This document shows, piece by piece, positions 2,666 to 15,706 of a DNA stretch of 16,987 nucleotides. Under the pieces are notes generated by a model, which saw nothing but the letters and a program-made list of their open reading frames with translations, did no database searches and had not been told where the DNA came from. This DNA comes from Candidatus Asgardarchaeum abyssi (GTDB taxonomy: Archaea > Asgardarchaeota > Asgardarchaeia > Asgardarchaeales > Asgardarchaeaceae), in contig JBECUL010000046.1 in the NCBI GenBank assembly GCA_040225955.1, forward strand, positions 1-16,987. The letters run 5' to 3'. Position 1 is the first letter of the stretch. Each line of letters opens with the position of its first letter. The translations under genes and the position numbers were made by a program.

Positions 2666-2980
2666 CTATTTCTCTCTGTTCATGCTAAGTTGCTCAAAAA
2701 TTTCTATTAGGCTCTTTATAGCTTTTCCTATCACATTTTCATCTTTAAAACGATATATTCTTATTCGTCCAAATCTTTTTTCTTCGATTAAATCTATGCT
2801 TTTTAAAAAATCCAAATGTTTTTTTACTGTAGAAAAATTTAAGTTTACTTGTCTTATAATTTCGGAAATATTAAGCTCTGATTGCTTTGCAAGCAGCACA
2901 AGCAATCTAGTTCTACCTTTTGATGAGAACAGCTCCTCAATTAGTTTATATTTTTCTCTACTAAATGAATTTTTAATCAT
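2666..2980 (-). CDS. ArsR-like winged-helix DNA-binding protein
   Basis: LFSSKGRTRLLVLL...LNISEIIRQVNLNFSTVKKHLDFLKSIDLIEEKRFGRIRIYRF is an HTH plus wing. 4-bp ATGA overlap with the cdc6 stop. Confidence 0.85.
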   Translation of the reverse strand: MIKNSFSREKYKLIEELFSSKGRTRLLVLLAKQSELNISEIIRQVNLNFSTVKKHLDFLKSIDLIEEKRFGRIRIYRFKDENVIGKAIKSLIEIFEQLSMNREK

Positions 2981-4185
2981 AAAGATCCCTCTCTTAATGA
3001 TGATAATAATATTTTTTCTATAGTTTCTGCTGGAACGTCCTCTAATGATATCAGAGTCGTTTTTCCTCTATAACCACTGCCAGATCTCTTACTTCTTATG
3101 TATCCAAGCTCTGTCAGTTCATTCACATACTTCCAAAGTTGTGTATGTTTAACTGGCTGTATTTCAAATTCTTCACATATTAGTTTGTATTCTCTCTTTA
3201 ACTCCCCCGTTGTAATATATGCTCTTTTCTTATTCCGTAAAAATTTAGCAATTGCAAATAATATTAATTTTTGTTGTAAAGGAAGCATGTATATATCATC
3301 ATATGCGATATTAGGACATATATCTGACTGGGCTTTTCTTACATGCTCAGGTGTAATAATTTCCGAACATTCCAACTCGGCATACTTCCCAGCCCTCCAA
3401 AGTAAATCTATTGCATATCTCGCATCTCCTTTTGATGAAGCAAGATCAGATATTAATTTTATTGTTTCACCTTTTACTACTCCATCAAAAAAGGCATCCT
3501 TAACTCTCATTTTTAGAATATCATAAAGTTGGTTAGCAGAATATGGTTTTAAATTAATAATATTATGCTGTAAAGTGCTTGATGTGCTCTTATCTAGAAA
3601 TAAATGAACCGATACATCTCTGACTATTAAAATTAAAGATAGCCTTTCTATTGGATTCAATTTTGTATCATTTAATCTGGTTAATCTGTAAATTAAATCA
3701 GGACCTTGAAGCCTAATAGTATAATCTACTTCATCTAATGCTGTTATTAAAAATAAGTTCTCTTTTTCTAAGACATCTAGCATTACTTCATATAGTTCAT
3801 TGGTAGAAAGTCCTCTATCAGGCAGTGATGGTAAAAGCTCTTTAAGAATTGTTTTTAGAATCATATATTCTTTTCTCGCCAATCTACAGTTCACATGTAT
3901 ATATCTTAGATTAATCCCAATATTACTTGCATAATTTTGTAATCTATTCCCAAATAATTTAGAAACGGCAGTTTTCCCAACTCCCACACTACCTGTTATT
4001 ATGACATTTTTAGATATTTTCCCTGGGAATCTTATTACTGTATGAAATAATCTTGCTAAGAATCTCAGCTCCTTTTCACGATGAGGAAGATAAAATGGAA
4101 CATAATCAATAGATAGTTTACTCTCATCTTTAAAAATACCTGAAGTTCTTTTTAACTCATCAATGATAATGTCCTTTCTATACAT
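2977..4185 (-). CDS. cdc6: Orc1/Cdc6 replication initiator (AAA+ plus C-terminal wHTH)
   Basis: N-terminal IFKDESKLSIDYVPxxLPHRE, Walker A GSVGVGKT, HVNC, Walker B ALDEVD, GDARYAIDLL, and a wHTH ending GYRGKT. Confidence 0.96.
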   Translation of the reverse strand: MYRKDIIIDELKRTSGIFKDESKLSIDYVPFYLPHREKELRFLARLFHTVIRFPGKISKNVIITGSVGVGKTAVSKLFGNRLQNYASNIGINLRYIHVNCRLARKEYMILKTILKELLPSLPDRGLSTNELYEVMLDVLEKENLFLITALDEVDYTIRLQGPDLIYRLTRLNDTKLNPIERLSLILIVRDVSVHLFLDKSTSSTLQHNIINLKPYSANQLYDILKMRVKDAFFDGVVKGETIKLISDLASSKGDARYAIDLLWRAGKYAELECSEIITPEHVRKAQSDICPNIAYDDIYMLPLQQKLILFAIAKFLRNKKRAYITTGELKREYKLICEEFEIQPVKHTQLWKYVNELTELGYIRSKRSGSGYRGKTTLISLEDVPAETIEKILLSSLREGSL

Positions 4186-4287
4186 TTTAACTCATCTACA
4201 AAAACTATATGAAAAATAAGTTTTATATTTTTTGGATAAAAGTACATTAGATTGTACTAATATACATAGAGTAAAGTGAAAGTATTC

Positions 4288-5796
4288 TTAAGAAAACTTT
4301 ATAGAATTTATCTGGAATGTTTTTAAGTTGACCACTGTAACAATTCCAGGCGTAGGGTCGATTCCACTTAATCTTTGATAATCTGTTTGAGCTTGAAAAC
4401 AACCACTATTTATTATAATAACATTTCTGTATTTGCCTATACCATTTACATGAAGATGTCCCATATGAAAAATCTCTGGTATCTCTTCAATTACTAATGG
4501 ATCGTCCTCGCATGGTGCAATGGGCGTTTTCCCCCCCCAGATTGGTGCTAAGTGTCTTACTTTTAGTAGATACATCATAATTCTTTCAGGTTTATTAACT
4601 TTAAGATTCGGAACAGCACTCATAATATCCTCAAGACTTCTTCCATGAGCCATTAATACTCTAACGTTATTTATCTCAATAAGTGATGGATTCCCTAACA
4701 TTATCACATTTTTCATTTTATATAAAGCCTTTGCATATTCCTCTGGTATTTTTGGTTGGGGGAGTGCTTGAAGTGTAGGATCATGGTTTCCTGGGATTAT
4801 CACTATTTTTATATCTTTGGGAATTTCGGAAAGAAGATTCGCGGCATATTCATATTGCTCAAATATATCTTTTATTATGAGATCTTCATCCTGATTTGGA
4901 TAGACACCTATTCCATCAACAAGATCCCCACCTATGAGTAAAAATCCAATTTTGGAAGCTAAGTTCTTTAAATCCTCATTTCCATATTTTTGATTAATCC
5001 ATTTTAAGAAGTTCTTAAAGGGAGATTCAAGAAATTCTTTACTTCCTATATGAATATCTGAAATAAAAACAGCCGCTACATCATCGTCACTTTTTTTAAT
5101 AATTTTATTTGTAGGAATGTCTGGAAATTCAATTCCTTCCACCTTTAACAAATCTCGCCTTACAATATGCCCTTTTATAAGTACTACGGAATCAAGAATC
5201 GGTGGTGTTTTTTCAATAAGATACATATTGTTATTTAGAACTCCTTTGATCTCACCTGTTGAATCTTCAAGCGTAAGGATAATGTTTTTACCTTTATTAT
5301 CCGTTTTGATTTCTGTAATTATAGAAATTGTTCTCACTTCTTGCAAATTACCTCTTCTCTCATAATTCCTTTTAATTTCCTCTATAGTTAATATTCGCTT
5401 TGCATCAATTCTCTCTTCAAGGATTTTTCTTAATTTTTTAAATCTGCTATTGAAGTATTTAACAAATCCTTGAATAGAAGCTGTTTTGTATTTACATAAA
5501 CTAAAATCTCTAACTATAGATATATGGCATCTTTTTCTTATTTTATTTACTTCGCTAAAATTACCTTTTTCCTTAAACAAAAGAAAGTCCCTTAGCTTTT
5601 CTTTTGTTACTATTTTAATTTTCCTTTCTTCGAAAAATTGAATAATTTTATTTATTTCTATGCCTTGATAAATTAGATTTACAATAATGTCTAAAGCCTT
5701 TGGTGATACCTGTAACCCCTCTTTAAGAAAATATCTCACAATAGACGATTTTTCTCTTATTCTTACATTTTCCTCTGAAATACTCACCAATAACAC
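4288..5796 (-). CDS. polB: DNA polymerase D small (proofreading exonuclease) subunit DP1
   Basis: OB-fold region (LTLEDSTG) and intact calcineurin-like phosphoesterase motifs ISDIHIGS, GGDLVDGIGVYPNQ, PGNHD, AHG, GHLH, RHLAP. Exact start uncertain (5796, 5790 or 5787). Confidence 0.96.
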   Translation of the reverse strand: MLLVSISEENVRIREKSSIVRYFLKEGLQVSPKALDIIVNLIYQGIEINKIIQFFEERKIKIVTKEKLRDFLLFKEKGNFSEVNKIRKRCHISIVRDFSLCKYKTASIQGFVKYFNSRFKKLRKILEERIDAKRILTIEEIKRNYERRGNLQEVRTISIITEIKTDNKGKNIILTLEDSTGEIKGVLNNNMYLIEKTPPILDSVVLIKGHIVRRDLLKVEGIEFPDIPTNKIIKKSDDDVAAVFISDIHIGSKEFLESPFKNFLKWINQKYGNEDLKNLASKIGFLLIGGDLVDGIGVYPNQDEDLIIKDIFEQYEYAANLLSEIPKDIKIVIIPGNHDPTLQALPQPKIPEEYAKALYKMKNVIMLGNPSLIEINNVRVLMAHGRSLEDIMSAVPNLKVNKPERIMMYLLKVRHLAPIWGGKTPIAPCEDDPLVIEEIPEIFHMGHLHVNGIGKYRNVIIINSGCFQAQTDYQRLSGIDPTPGIVTVVNLKTFQINSIKFS

Positions 5797-6014
5797 CTTA
5801 GGGATTTATATGTTAATCATATTAATCATAAATATTCAAATTGTTACAAAACTACGATACATATCAGATTATAATAATTTTATTTTATATCCACATCACA
5901 TCTTCGCTTTTTCTCCACAATACATAATCACTCTAAATATTCATAAGTAAAAACATCAAAATTTCCATATAAATTAATACTTGTACTTTCTCATTCGATG
6001 AGGTGACCTGATAA

Positions 6015-6341
6015 ATGGTATCCTTTGAAAAATTTTTTCACATAATGAAGAAGATACTTAACAAAGAGATTCATGACCCATGGCCGTTATTTGAGAGATT
6101 GGATAGTAAAAGTAAAGATTATGCTTATATAGAAAAAATGGAACATCTTGGTAGAGTTTTATTAGTAAATTGTGGAGACTGTGATGGGCCATCATATATA
6201 GGTCATAAAACGTGTTTATTATGTATTAAAGATATATTACAAGAGATAAACCTTGATGGAAAAAAGAATCCCGATTATATAATTCTATCAAGAATAATTC
6301 CTACGTCGTCCATTAAAATATTTATAAAAGAGCATAAATGA
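6015..6341 (+). CDS. Small Cys4 (CxxC-x10-CxxC) putative metal-binding protein of unknown function
   Basis: 108-aa ORF with strong SD GAGGTGA (6000-6006) and motif VNCGDCDGPSYIGHKTCLLC. Directly upstream of and co-oriented with DP2. Confidence 0.75.
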   Translation: MVSFEKFFHIMKKILNKEIHDPWPLFERLDSKSKDYAYIEKMEHLGRVLLVNCGDCDGPSYIGHKTCLLCIKDILQEINLDGKKNPDYIILSRIIPTSSIKIFIKEHK

Positions 6342-6372
6342 GTGGCGTCGAGCATAATAATCGGTGATGTAT

Positions 6373-9300
6373 ATGAAATATCTCACAAAGGAATACATAG
6401 AAGAATCTATGAAAAGATACTTTTCCTATATTAAACAAAAAGTATATGAAGCATATAATATCGCAAGAGAAGCAAGAAAAAAAGGTTTAGATCCTAGTCA
6501 TGAGGTTGAAATAATTCCTGCCGCTGATGTAGCATCTAGAATAGAAGGTTTATTGGGTCCGCCTGGTATTGCTAAGAGAATAAATGAACTACTAGAAAGT
6601 ATGTCACGTGAGGAAGTTGCTTATAAAATAGCTGTAGAAATAGTATCTGGGAAACTTGGGAGTCTCTCTACTGAAAAAGCTGCGGATAAAGCTTTAAGAG
6701 TCGCACTTGCTATTTTGACTGAAGGAATTACCGCAGGTCCTTTAGAAGGAATAGCCCAAGTTAAGATAAAAGAAAACTTTGATGGAACAAAATATCTTGC
6801 AGTTTATTACTCAGGTCCTATTAGAGCAGCTGGAGGAACTGAAGCCGCACAAACAGTTGTAATCGCAGATTGTATAAGGCAAGCACTAGGCCTTGAAAAA
6901 TATAAACCAACAGCAGATGAAATAAATAGATATGTAGAGGAAATAGAGCTCTATGAACGAAGAGTAACTCATTTGCAATATTCTTCTAGTAGAGAAGAGA
7001 TAGAATTTGCTGTAAAAAATATTCCAGTTGAAATAACTGGCGAACCGACAGACCCTGTAGAAGTATCTGGGTATCGTAACTTACCTAGGGTTGAAACAAA
7101 TAGACTCCGTGGTGGTGCCATTCTAGTTTTAAATGATGGTATTATTGGTAGAGCGCATAAATTACAAAAGATAATAAAAGAATTAAAGATAACTGGATGG
7201 GATTGGCTAGATACACTCGTAGAGATGCGTAAGGAGGGGAACAGTGAAGAGAATGAAAATACGAAAAGTAAGGTAGGTCCAGATTATAAATATCTTTCAG
7301 ATGTTATTGCTGGTAGACCTGTTTTTTCACATCCTATGAGAATTGGTGGATTTAGACTTAGATATGGACGTTCACGTAACACTGGGCTTGCAGCCGTAGG
7401 CCTAAATCCAGTAACAATGTATGTTCTAGATGGATTTCTTGCACCTGGTACTCATATTAGAACGGAACGACCTGGTAAAGGAGCTATTGTTATGCCAGTT
7501 ACTACAATTGAAGGTCCTACAGTCCTTTTAAGTGATGGTTCTGTTGTAAAAGTAAATAAGCTTTCAGAGTTAAAAGAGCTTCTTAAGAAGAATCTCAAAG
7601 TGAAAAAAGTACTATATCTTGGAGACATTCTAATAGGATTTGGTGAGTTTTTAGAAAATAACCACATACTTTTGCCATCACCATACGTAGAAGAGTGGTG
7701 GATCTCAGATCTAGAAAGAAATTTTAAGAAGATACCCACTTCAAAAGTTCCGGAGGTTATACTAGAAAAAGTAAAGCGTTTATTGGAAAATCCATTTTAT
7801 GATGGTATATCCTTCGAAGAAGCATTTACTATATCGAAACTATATCAAGTCCCTTTGCATCCTAAATTTCTATATTATTGGAATATATTGCAACCTGATG
7901 ATGTTGTTTTACTGTACGATTTTCTTTTCCTTAACCGCGAATCTTTAGAAAAAAATAATGAAATACCACTTGATCTCAATATTAAGAATATTTTAGAGCG
8001 AGCTGGGATTCCTCATAGGCTGGATGATGAGAAAAAGAAAATCATATTTGATAATGACGTTTCTAGAATGCTTTTTACGGTTTTCTCTTTGTCATCAGAT
8101 AAAAAGTATTTTGATAAAAGTAGCTTGCAGTCAATGTCATCAATTGAAATTTTAAATAAAATTTCGCCAGTCTGTATACGCTCTAAAGGAGAAGTTTTTA
8201 TCGGCGCTAGAATGGGACGACCAGAAAAAGCAAAGCCTCGAAAAATGTCCCCTCCTGTTCATGGTCTTTTTCCAGTTGGTAGTGCGGGTGGTAAATCACG
8301 GGATATACTTGAGGCTATTAAAAAAGGGAAAATAGTAGTTGAAACATATACTAGAAAATGTACTACTTGTGGTCTATTAATTCCATTTCCAATATGCCCA
8401 GTTTGCAAAAACAAAACAGTTCCCATAAAATATTGTTCAGATTGTAAAATAATAGTAAATGAAGATAAGTGTCCAAAGTGTGGTAAGCCACTAAAAGAGT
8501 ACTCAAAAATGGAATTGGATATCAGAAAAATTTTTGAAACCTCCGAAAAAAGAGGTATTCTTATCAATAAATCAAAAATGCATGTAAAAGGAGTAAAAGG
8601 ATTATCAAGTGCTAAAAAAATACCTGAAATCTTAGATAAAGCGATCTTGCGAGCTAAATATAATATTTTCGTATTTAAGGATGGCACTGTTCGTTTTGAT
8701 GCTACAGATGCACCACTTACTCATTTTAGACCAAGAGAAATCGGTGCGTCTATAGAAACATTGAAAAAGTTAGGTTATACTCGTGATATTTACGGCGATC
8801 CATTAACATCTGAGGATCAAATTTTGGAGTTGAAGGTGCAAGATATAATAATTTCTAAACATGCGGGTGACTATTTACTTCGAGTTTCTAAGTTTATAGA
8901 CGAGTTATTAGAAAAAGTATACGGGCTACCATCATATTATAATTGTAATAAAAAAGAGGATCTTATAGGACACCTTGTTATCGGATTGGCACCTCACACA
9001 TCTGCAGGTATCATTGGAAGAATTATCGGCTTTACAAAATCTCAAGTCACCTTTGCACACCCATTCTGGCATGCGGCCAAGCGAAGGAATTGCGATGGTG
9101 ACGAAGATAGTATTATTCTACTACTTGATGGCTTTTTGAATTTTTCTAAATCATTTCTTCCAAAAAAAAGAGGAGGTACTATGGACGCTCCATTAGTTTT
9201 GACTATATATCTTAATCCATTTGAAGTCGATGATGAATCATGGAATCTTGATGTAATGAAACGATATCCCTATGAGTTTTATCAACTCACTCATAAGTTT

Positions 9301-9855
9301 GTATCTCCAAAGGAGGCACTTGAGTATATTGAAATAGCTGAAAAAAGATTAGGAACTCCTTTCCAATATGGCGGTTTTCTCTTCACCCACGATACGGATC
9401 AGATAGATATAGGTCCTGACGAAACTACCTACAAAAGACTTAAAACCATGACTGAGAAGGTAAATGCACAATTAAACTTAGCACAGAAAATAAATGCAGT
9501 GGATGTGTGTGACGTTGCTAGAAAAGTAGTTACTTCTCATTTTCTACCAGATATAATTGGAAGTTTAAGATCATTTTTAACACAATCTTTTCGATGCTTG
9601 AATTGTAATACAAAGTATAGAAGAGTCCCACTTTCTGGTACTTGCTTAAAGTGTGGAGGGAAAATCGCATTAACGGTACCAAAAGGCTCCGTAACTAAAT
9701 ATTTATCATTGGCTAAAAAAATAGCTGAAGATTACAACCTTGATACCTACCTAAAAGAACGATTATTAATGATAGAGAAAAATATAGAGGCGCTCTTTAA
9801 AGAACTATCTGAAGAAGAAACTAAAGCTCTCTCGTTAGAGGACTTCTTTTCATAG
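6373..9855 (+). CDS. polC: DNA polymerase D large catalytic subunit DP2, no obvious intein
   Basis: YYSGPIRAAGGT, RLRYGRSRNTG, GARMGRPEKAK, Zn-finger Cys clusters, catalytic HAAKRRNCDGDED, C-terminal CLNC/CLKC and a PIP-like LEDFF. The track's GTG 6364 lies in the SD GGTGA, so ATG 6373 is preferred. Confidence 0.97.
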   Translation: MKYLTKEYIEESMKRYFSYIKQKVYEAYNIAREARKKGLDPSHEVEIIPAADVASRIEGLLGPPGIAKRINELLESMSREEVAYKIAVEIVSGKLGSLSTEKAADKALRVALAILTEGITAGPLEGIAQVKIKENFDGTKYLAVYYSGPIRAAGGTEAAQTVVIADCIRQALGLEKYKPTADEINRYVEEIELYERRVTHLQYSSSREEIEFAVKNIPVEITGEPTDPVEVSGYRNLPRVETNRLRGGAILVLNDGIIGRAHKLQKIIKELKITGWDWLDTLVEMRKEGNSEENENTKSKVGPDYKYLSDVIAGRPVFSHPMRIGGFRLRYGRSRNTGLAAVGLNPVTMYVLDGFLAPGTHIRTERPGKGAIVMPVTTIEGPTVLLSDGSVVKVNKLSELKELLKKNLKVKKVLYLGDILIGFGEFLENNHILLPSPYVEEWWISDLERNFKKIPTSKVPEVILEKVKRLLENPFYDGISFEEAFTISKLYQVPLHPKFLYYWNILQPDDVVLLYDFLFLNRESLEKNNEIPLDLNIKNILERAGIPHRLDDEKKKIIFDNDVSRMLFTVFSLSSDKKYFDKSSLQSMSSIEILNKISPVCIRSKGEVFIGARMGRPEKAKPRKMSPPVHGLFPVGSAGGKSRDILEAIKKGKIVVETYTRKCTTCGLLIPFPICPVCKNKTVPIKYCSDCKIIVNEDKCPKCGKPLKEYSKMELDIRKIFETSEKRGILINKSKMHVKGVKGLSSAKKIPEILDKAILRAKYNIFVFKDGTVRFDATDAPLTHFRPREIGASIETLKKLGYTRDIYGDPLTSEDQILELKVQDIIISKHAGDYLLRVSKFIDELLEKVYGLPSYYNCNKKEDLIGHLVIGLAPHTSAGIIGRIIGFTKSQVTFAHPFWHAAKRRNCDGDEDSIILLLDGFLNFSKSFLPKKRGGTMDAPLVLTIYLNPFEVDDESWNLDVMKRYPYEFYQLTHKFVSPKEALEYIEIAEKRLGTPFQYGGFLFTHDTDQIDIGPDETTYKRLKTMTEKVNAQLNLAQKINAVDVCDVARKVVTSHFLPDIIGSLRSFLTQSFRCLNCNTKYRRVPLSGTCLKCGGKIALTVPKGSVTKYLSLAKKIAEDYNLDTYLKERLLMIEKNIEALFKELSEEETKALSLEDFFS

Positions 9856-15240: not shown

Positions 15241-15318
15241 GCCCAGGTGGTGTAGCCAGGCCTAGCATGCGGGACTGTCACTCCCGCGACCCGGGATCGA
15301 AGCCCGGCCTGGGCGCCA
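15241..15318 (+). tRNA. tRNA-Asp(GTC), CCA encoded
   Basis: Acceptor GCCCAGG/CCTGGGC, anticodon arm CGGGA-CTGTCAC-TCCCG, T-arm CCGGG-ATCGAAG-CCCGG, G73 then CCA. A T-rich tract follows. Confidence 0.95.
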
Positions 15319-15458: not shown

Positions 15459-15595
15459 GGGCCCGTAGCTCAGTCGGCAGAGAAATCACCGAAAGCGCCG
15501 GATTCCACGCCGGAGGGTGTGGAAGGTGAAGCTTTTAACCGATATGATGCCGGGAAGAAACCCGGCGGTCGGGGGTTCGATTCCCCCCGGGCCCG
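15459..15595 (+). tRNA. tRNA-Lys(TTT) with three introns (15481-15493 at 22/23; 15502-15530 at 30/31; 15538-15559 at 37/38)
   Basis: Joining exons 15459-15480, 15494-15501, 15531-15537 and 15560-15595 gives a perfect 73-nt cloverleaf: GGGCCCG TA GCTC AGTCGGCA GAGC G CCGGG CTTTTAA CCCGG CGGTC GGGGG TTCGATT CCCCC CGGGCCC G. Introns 2 and 3 form canonical BHB motifs and intron 1 a relaxed BHL. Confidence 0.9.
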
Positions 15596-15706
15596 CTATG
15601 GTTTTGTGGGAGGCGGATACTTGAATATTGAAAATAACAAAAGAATTTTATTTGAAGTTTTGAAGTTTAAGGAGGTAAATCATTATTCTTATAGGTGAGT
15701 ATGTAT

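Follow-up and report, generated by a model that had tools for sequence, protein, structure and literature searches.

Positions 15459-15595 on the forward strand of the window, i.e. of the complete 16,987-nt stretch of DNA that was analysed, very probably constitute a working tRNA-Lys(UUU) gene, the only one in the assembly, which is interrupted by three BHB-type introns at the tRNA positions 22/23, 30/31 and 37/38. The sequence as we read it (137 nt) agrees with its earlier description, and the removal of inserts of 13, 29 and 22 nt leaves a 73-nt molecule that ARAGORN calls as tRNA-Lys(ttt), with anticodon UUU. Making the tRNA for the commonest codon, AAA, would thereby take six exact cuts as well as three ligations, and exons of 8 and 7 nt would be joined in two of these.

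Anatomy of the gene and its splice motifs

The spliced product forms a cloverleaf in which ARAGORN finds an acceptor stem of 7 bp, a D-stem of 4 bp, an anticodon stem of 5 bp and a T-stem of 5 bp, with no mismatches. It is this exact 73-nt fold that bears out the original prediction of a three-intron tRNA-Lys(UUU) gene with internal exons of 8 and 7 nt. For the unspliced gene, the Rfam tRNA covariance model yields a score of 39.2 bits across the full 137 nt (gathering score 29). The exons have lengths of 22, 8, 7 and 36 nt (Table 1). The two outer ones are recovered by BLAST as 100% matches, namely at mature-query positions 1-24 (exon 1) and 37-73 (exon 4), the latter ending without an encoded CCA. 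The mature sequence is 89% identical to that of the compact Lys(CUU) gene of the same genome and 88% identical to that of a compact Lys(UUU) gene from a different Asgard genome.

Table 1. Coordinates of the tRNA-Lys(UUU) gene and of the other features discussed. Positions refer to the window, unless another contig or locus is named.
Feature	Position	Strand	Remarks
BRE/TATA-like element, gaaaaatttataa	15413..15425	+	46 to 34 nt upstream of the tRNA 5' end; recognised by its sequence only
Exon 1, 22 nt	15459..15480	+	acceptor 5' strand, D-stem 5' strand, D-loop, G22
Intron 1, 13 nt, position 22/23	15481..15493	+	relaxed bulge-helix-loop type
Exon 2, 8 nt, AGCGCCGG, tRNA positions 23-30	15494..15501	+	ARAGORN fold
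Intron 2, 29 nt, position 30/31	15502..15530	+	full hBHBh', 9-bp intron hairpin
Exon 3, 7 nt, GCTTTTA, tRNA positions 31-37	15531..15537	+	anticodon UUU inside; ARAGORN fold
Intron 3, 22 nt, canonical position 37/38	15538..15559	+	BHB motif
Exon 4, 36 nt	15560..15595	+	A38, anticodon stem 3' strand, variable loop, T-arm, acceptor 3' strand, discriminator G
T4 run	15602..15605	+	7 nt past the gene; T runs also just downstream of other tRNA genes
tRNA-Asp(GUC)	15241..15315	+	intron-less; 143 nt upstream of the Lys gene, same strand
Cdc6/Orc1 (-), DP1 small subunit (-), DP2 large subunit (+)	2977..9855		clustered
ORF, 108 aa	6015..6341	+	no Pfam match
ORF, 428 aa	11900..13186	+	no Pfam match
tRNA-Leu(UAA)	C8:47255..47375	+	labelled Glu(ctc) by ARAGORN; apparently two introns, in the D-loop (~21 nt) and near 38-44 (~15 nt)
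tRNA-Leu(GAG)	C150:1934..2052	+	labelled Ala(cgc) by ARAGORN; one D-loop intron, ~33 nt
tRNA-Ser(GCU) candidate, 99 nt	C79:3634..3732	-	~13-15 extra nt in the D-arm
tRNA-Lys(CUU)	C51:3380..3453		compact
EndA homologue	C8:5192..5785 (L011:1195..1785)	+	PF01974, 60.9 bits; sole one in the assembly
RtcB ligase	C33:6582..7889		PF01139, 594 bits
f6 Lys(UUU) genes	L056 (G075), L057 (G016), L058 (G005)		123, 129 and 133 nt

Splice motifs were scored for every deletion of 10-70 nt within the locus, which amounts to 5551 (start, length) pairs, on the basis of the published BHB geometry, that is the pairing of the four exon nucleotides before the 5' bulge with the four intron nucleotides before the 3' bulge, supplemented by the intron and outer helices. 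As a control for chance, each intron was shuffled in place 20000 times. In the case of intron 2, the central helix CGCC/GGTG has 4/4 pairs, the bulges are GG^A and AA^G, the outer helix measures 4-5 bp and the intron hairpin is formed by TTCCACGCC/GGTGTGGAA (9 bp). It is the sole one of the 5551 candidate deletions in which a 4/4 central helix is accompanied by flanking helices on both sides (hBHBh'), and none of the 20000 shuffles equalled its motif. Intron 3 has a central helix CTTT/GAAG (4/4), an intron stem CCG/CGG of 3 bp and the bulges TA^A and AA^A; its outer helix extends over 7 bp after the removal of intron 2, as compared to 1 bp while intron 2 is present, and its motif was equalled in 0.3% of the shuffles. 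Intron 1 has a central helix CGGC/ACCG with 3/4 pairs, the bulges AG^A and AA^A, an outer helix of 2 bp and an intron-stem value (h') of 1, i.e. no real stem, and its 5' site is situated inside what is effectively an 11-nt loop. At least 3/4 central pairs were found in 3% of its shuffles and a match on all three measures in 0.4%. The motifs had been described before, and the description holds for each of them: at 30/31 a full hBHBh' with exactly the central helix, bulges and intron stem that had been proposed, at 37/38 a canonical motif, and at 22/23 a relaxed motif with one mismatch and no proper stem.

The positions of the motifs coincide with the boundaries that are set by the cloverleaf alone. 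Chance produces relaxed motifs at many boundaries (Goswami preprint, 10.64898/2026.10.13.758758), and it is therefore chiefly the cloverleaf, together with the other genomes described below, that speaks for intron 1. As such, intron 1 is a bulge-helix-loop mini-intron, a kind that is also found at canonical sites in the host genome.

With respect to the precise register, cutting intron 1 at 22/23, 23/24 or 24/25 gives an identical product, and the motif is present at 22/23 alone. The registers 23/24 and 24/25 of intron 1, as well as the registers 36/37 and 38/39 of intron 3, were rejected for having poorer motifs or none.

Two further characteristics of the intron sequences can be mentioned. 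All three introns start with A and end in GAA, as do the 30/31 introns of a related gene family (f6, see below), and each 3' bulge therefore reads AA^N. In addition, the heptamer CGCCGGA at the junction of exon 2 and intron 2 (15496-15502) recurs inside intron 2 (15509-15515), and GGTG is also found twice (15519-15522 and 15525-15528), so that intron 2 holds a nested copy of its own 5' junction. The nested copy creates a decoy 5' site, and it could reflect the growth of a mini-intron by internal duplication.

Genomic setting and need for the tRNA

The window represents an entire 17-kb contig (C46) of a MAG of 2.64 Mb and 34% GC that consists of 189 contigs, with an estimated completeness of 93.5% and contamination of 7.8%. 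The contig carries Cdc6/Orc1, the PolD subunits DP1 and DP2 and the start of rpoB, and the actin encoded in the genome reaches 448 bits against Pfam Actin and more than 500 bits against eukaryotic actins in the PDB. The combination of an actin of the eukaryote type and PolD implies that the host is an Asgard archaeon, as had been supposed at the outset. Within the 25 nearest species genomes and the 150 genomes that were sampled from the phylum, none was found to be closer than 'same phylum', and the identity of DP2 to its Asgard relatives is 54% at best. Hence, close relatives of the host seem to be lacking from the species genomes that were searched. The place of the contig itself in the Asgard bin, which rests on the binning and on the 54% DP2 identity, appears weaker than the support at the level of the genome.

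The clustering of Cdc6/Orc1 and PolD genes in the window is the usual neighbourhood of an archaeal replication origin. The DP2 protein of the host (1163 aa) is free of inteins; in many Asgard relatives DP2 is encoded in frames of 1550-1730 aa in which the match is split near residue 910, and the intervening part looks like an intein.

Introns are found in about 18 of the roughly 44 tRNA genes of the host (about 21 introns, ~0.5 per gene). Most of the intron-bearing genes have a single short intron (12-62 nt) at or near 37/38, mostly of the canonical kind, and the only multiply interrupted genes are those for Leu(UAA), with two introns, and Lys(UUU), with three. The 'heavily intron-invaded tRNAs' of the original prediction are thus not what this genome contains, the burden being moderate and most interrupted genes being interrupted once. 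Because the burden of the host is modest, the Lys(UUU) gene is an outlier in its own genome. Inserts in the D-arm occur elsewhere in the host in Leu(GAG), Leu(UAA) and Ser(GCU). The Ser(GCU) candidate was recovered by a scan for T-arm/acceptor combinations only, having been missed by both the genome-wide Infernal search and ARAGORN. A search for copies of the introns elsewhere in the genome, as could result from a Thermoproteales-like transposition, yielded just chance matches of at most 12 nt.

The BRE/TATA-like element upstream of the Lys gene has counterparts of the type RAAAAAnTTtAtAAA that precede many of the host's other tRNA genes by a similar distance, such as those for Asp, His, Tyr, Ile, Val and Leu. 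The T4 run downstream is a likely transcription stop. Since the neighbouring Asp gene has its own BRE/TATA-like element, the Asp and Lys genes are apparently transcribed as two separate units.

A second Lys(UUU) gene was not found in the assembly by Infernal, by ARAGORN, by BLAST of the mature sequence or by the T-arm/acceptor scan, and the question that had been raised, namely whether this is the genome's only Lys(TTT) gene, can thus be answered affirmatively for the 93.5%-complete assembly on the basis of four search methods. The codon AAA is the most frequent one (5.24% of the codons in 603 long ORFs, twice the share of AAG) and tRNA-Lys(UUU) must therefore be needed in quantity. The gene is missed by ARAGORN with default settings and is reported as 'tRNA-Stop(tta) i(31,44)', with one 44-nt intron, when introns are allowed; in the whole-genome Infernal search it is lost at the first filter. 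That standard scanners would miscall the gene, as was expected, holds for the scanners that were run (ARAGORN and genome-wide Infernal), and an automated annotation of this genome would be devoid of tRNA-Lys(UUU).

Related genes and alternative readings

For a comparison with other Asgard archaea, the mature sequence served as a BLAST query on 150 further genomes of the phylum, and 50 loci were subjected to spliced alignment. The architecture of Lys(UUU) genes proved to be variable. Compact genes are present in the families f4, f8, f16 and f19, an intron at 37/38 is found in four families (f2, f9, f19 and f20), D-loop introns occur in f3, f7 and f17, and introns in the variable region or the T-arm are found in other families. 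In family f6 (three genomes of two genera) the Lys(UUU) gene has three introns, at 15/16, 22/23 and 30/31, and it includes two 8-nt exons, CTAGGTAG and AGCGCCGG. The second of these, between the introns at 22/23 and 30/31, is identical to the 8-nt exon of the host. The similarity extends to the splice sites, in that the central helix CGCC/GG[CT]G and the bulges GG^A/AA^G at 30/31 as well as the bulges AG^A/AA^A at 22/23 are like those of the host. The f6 genes differ from the host gene in that the third intron is located at 15/16 instead of 37/38, the 30/31 introns are mini-introns of 12-19 nt without the 9-bp hairpin, and the 22/23 introns are longer (21-23 nt) and have a 4/4 helix. The recurrence of two intron positions together with the micro-exon, in genomes that were assembled independently, is the strongest evidence that the inserts are introns and not artefacts. 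In a quick DP2 tree, of which the deep forks are weakly supported, the host is not placed beside f6.

The same recurrence bears upon the possibility that the locus is a pseudogene, that is a decaying or silent copy, with the working Lys(UUU) gene hidden in the ~6% of the genome that is unassembled. Given an assembly of 189 contigs with a completeness of 93.5%, in which other expected tRNA genes like those for Gln(UUG) and Arg(CCU) were not found, such a hidden gene is conceivable, and yet we consider a pseudogene very unlikely: all stem pairs of the spliced product are intact, motifs have been kept at all three junctions, the promoter resembles that of other tRNA genes, and orthologues with a similar architecture are present in the three genomes of another family (f6).

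The exact partition of the inserts has been examined separately. A motif-free spliced alignment of the mature sequence (by a dynamic programme) returned the three inserts and also a second parse of 25 + 17 + 22 nt, which exists because CGCCGG(A) occurs twice, in exon 2 and inside intron 2. According to this parse the CGCCGG copy at 15509-15514 is the true exon, flanked by introns of 25 and 17 nt instead of 13 and 29 nt. It leads to the same mature sequence and the 17-nt piece retains the CGCC/GGTG helix (H 4/4). Nevertheless, the 17-nt piece is without an intron or outer helix, and the parse was rejected on account of the 25-nt piece, which has no BHB (H 2/4) and no flanking helices. In contrast, the parse of 13 + 29 nt comes with the full hBHBh' and the 9-bp hairpin and agrees with the f6 positions 22/23 and 30/31, which makes the 25 + 17 nt partition highly improbable.

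We attach just as little probability to a two-intron gene in which the 13-nt insert is retained in an enlarged, irregular D-arm. The motif of intron 1 is a relaxed one (H 3/4) and annotators commonly keep such D-arm inserts in the 'mature' tRNA (10.64898/2026.10.13.758758). However, the insert sits in the 3' strand of the D-stem, where it would disrupt the C13-G22 pair and the continuity of the stem, and it is absent from the compact relatives. Moreover, this site also bears an intron in f6, one with a 4/4 helix and identical bulges, and mini-introns of 12-15 nt with a 5' site in a loop are common in the host genome. Finally, although the source is a short-read MAG, an assembly artefact or chimeric contig has a negligible probability, as a misassembly would not yield three motif-flanked inserts that leave a perfect tRNA, and independent Asgard assemblies show the same intron positions. 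The reading that we retain is therefore that of a working gene with introns of 13, 29 and 22 nt.

Maturation and comparison with known multi-intron systems

Of the splicing machinery, the RtcB ligase is encoded in the genome, and so is a single EndA homologue (Table 1). Compared to the enzyme of M. jannaschii, the latter has kept the catalytic Tyr and Lys and has a Pro in place of the His. It shares 35-43% identity with the beta subunits of the relatives and 26-34% with the alpha subunits, and it is without the L1 loop and the His. Judged by these characteristics, the host protein is a beta-type, non-catalytic structural subunit, i.e. the orthologue of the second, His-less paralogue of the relatives. 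Alpha and beta subunits were both found in 22 of 25 relatives, and an alpha was found in all 25. The alphas of the relatives score about 89-111 bits, and the ten that were translated all have a loop insertion of the PLGIRKPK type and the GIDH motif; the betas score 37-83 bits and the aligned copies are without the loop and without GIDH. An alpha was not found in the 93.5%-complete assembly of the host with PF01974, PF02778 or tblastn with ten Asgard alphas. Weak tblastn matches on the contigs C72, C7 and C48 were discarded as unrelated proteins. The gene for the catalytic alpha most likely resides in the unassembled part of the genome.

A broad-specificity EndA had been predicted for this lineage, and on this point the typing of the subunits provided no direct confirmation, since it gave the beta-type only, with no catalytic His and no L1 loop. 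An (alpha-beta)2 EndA with the L1 loop has been assigned to Asgard archaea (Kaneta et al. 2018, PMC5829648), and from this published assignment and from the relatives we infer that the host possesses the same type of enzyme. In the Kaneta system the L1 (Crenarchaea-specific) loop EndA is reported for both TACK and Asgard archaea (PMC5829648). The ten translated alphas of the relatives, having the RKPK loop and the catalytic His, conform to that system; the host differs in that the alpha is absent from its assembly.

Taken together, the elements described suggest the following route of maturation. The precursor would be transcribed from its own BRE/TATA promoter, after which EndA, expected to be an (alpha-beta)2 enzyme with the L1 loop, would cut in the two 3-nt bulges (or the loop) of each motif, at six sites in all. 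RtcB would then ligate the exons of 22, 8, 7 and 36 nt to yield the 73-nt tRNA, and CCA would be added after ligation, an addition that is needed because none is encoded. The anatomy of the gene, its motifs, the conservation of intron positions across genomes and the presence of EndA-beta and RtcB are shown by the sequences, whereas we infer that the gene is transcribed, that it is cut at these sites, that its introns leave in a certain order and that an alpha subunit exists.

With respect to the order of removal, some clues may be derived from the predicted folding. The hairpin of intron 2 is present in ~99% of the full-precursor ensemble, and its whole motif can be enforced at a cost of 2 kcal/mol over the MFE, which suggests that intron 2 may present its motif autonomously. 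The motif of intron 3 costs 7.6 kcal/mol in the full precursor, because GCCGGG within intron 3 pairs with CCCGGC of the exon. Deletion of intron 2 allows the anticodon stem to close, and the intron 3 motif then appears in the minimum-energy fold. The modelling thus suggests that the intron 3 motif would be hidden in a competing hairpin until intron 2 has been removed. The short helix of intron 1 forms in several intermediates, regardless of the other introns. The presentation of all three motifs at once lies 16 kcal/mol above the MFE, and the MFE fold of the full precursor is not BHB-presenting. Such thermodynamic reasoning is weak evidence, and it is evidence for the order of removal only.

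The above can be extended to a joint scenario in which the introns at 22/23 and 30/31 and the exon AGCGCCGG between them are old and have been inherited vertically in two Asgard lineages separated by a deep split, rather than having arisen by parallel insertion, and in which intron 2 must be removed before intron 3, the order being fixed by a decoy hairpin in which the intron 3 motif of the unspliced RNA is trapped. As a whole we find this scenario doubtful. Positions that are common to different Asgard classes generally need at least two events (Goswami preprint, 10.64898/2026.10.13.758758). If true, sequential splicing would gate the maturation of the sole tRNA that reads the most used codon.

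Multiple introns are not confined to a single archaeal group. In Thermoproteales, tRNA genes with three introns have been on record since 2007-2008 (Sugahara 2007/2008; review PMC4033280), and the original prediction took multi-intron tRNAs to be typical of that order, a premise that is out of date now that both the multi-intron tRNAs (PMC11291895; 10.64898/2026.10.13.758758) and the L1-loop EndA (PMC5829648) of Asgard archaea have been published. The host gene resembles those of Thermoproteales in that they also have up to three BHB or relaxed introns per gene at non-canonical positions, and their multi-intron tRNAs depend on an (alpha-beta)2 EndA with a specificity loop. It differs from them in that Thermoproteales are Crenarchaeota without PolD, whereas the host has PolD and a eukaryote-type actin and belongs to another phylum. 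Furthermore, intron families are reported for Thermoproteales, whereas no intron copies were seen elsewhere in the host genome.

The closer parallel is provided by the Asgard archaea themselves. Valentin-Alvarado et al. 2024 (PMC11291895) found introns in 92-95% of the tRNA genes of three complete Asgard genomes; over half of these genes have more than one, frequently at positions other than the canonical one. As many as five intervening sequences in a single tRNA gene have been reported, the D-arm inserts being systematically missed by tRNAscan-SE and the positions recurring between lineages (Goswami et al. 2026 preprint, 10.64898/2026.10.13.758758). The host gene shares with these published cases the short inserts, the positions in the D-arm and the anticodon stem, the BHB boundaries, a D-arm insert that is missed or miscalled by scanners, and positions that recur across lineages. 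At the level of the genome there is a difference, as the focal families of the published phenotype have 2.2 introns per tRNA gene and the host has about 0.5. In other words, the gene fits the published, heavily interrupted Asgard phenotype and the genome does not.

The phenomenon as such has been described before, so that what is gained here is incremental. The gene offers a compact natural substrate for studying the tolerance of Asgard EndA for relaxed motifs and for introns that lie close together, as well as the order of splicing, and the fact that a second family has the 22/23 + 30/31 architecture is one further observation bearing on the question whether Asgard introns are old or have been gained repeatedly. 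As compared to the known systems, the gene is a clean further example of a phenomenon that has been published for Asgard archaea, and not a new kind.
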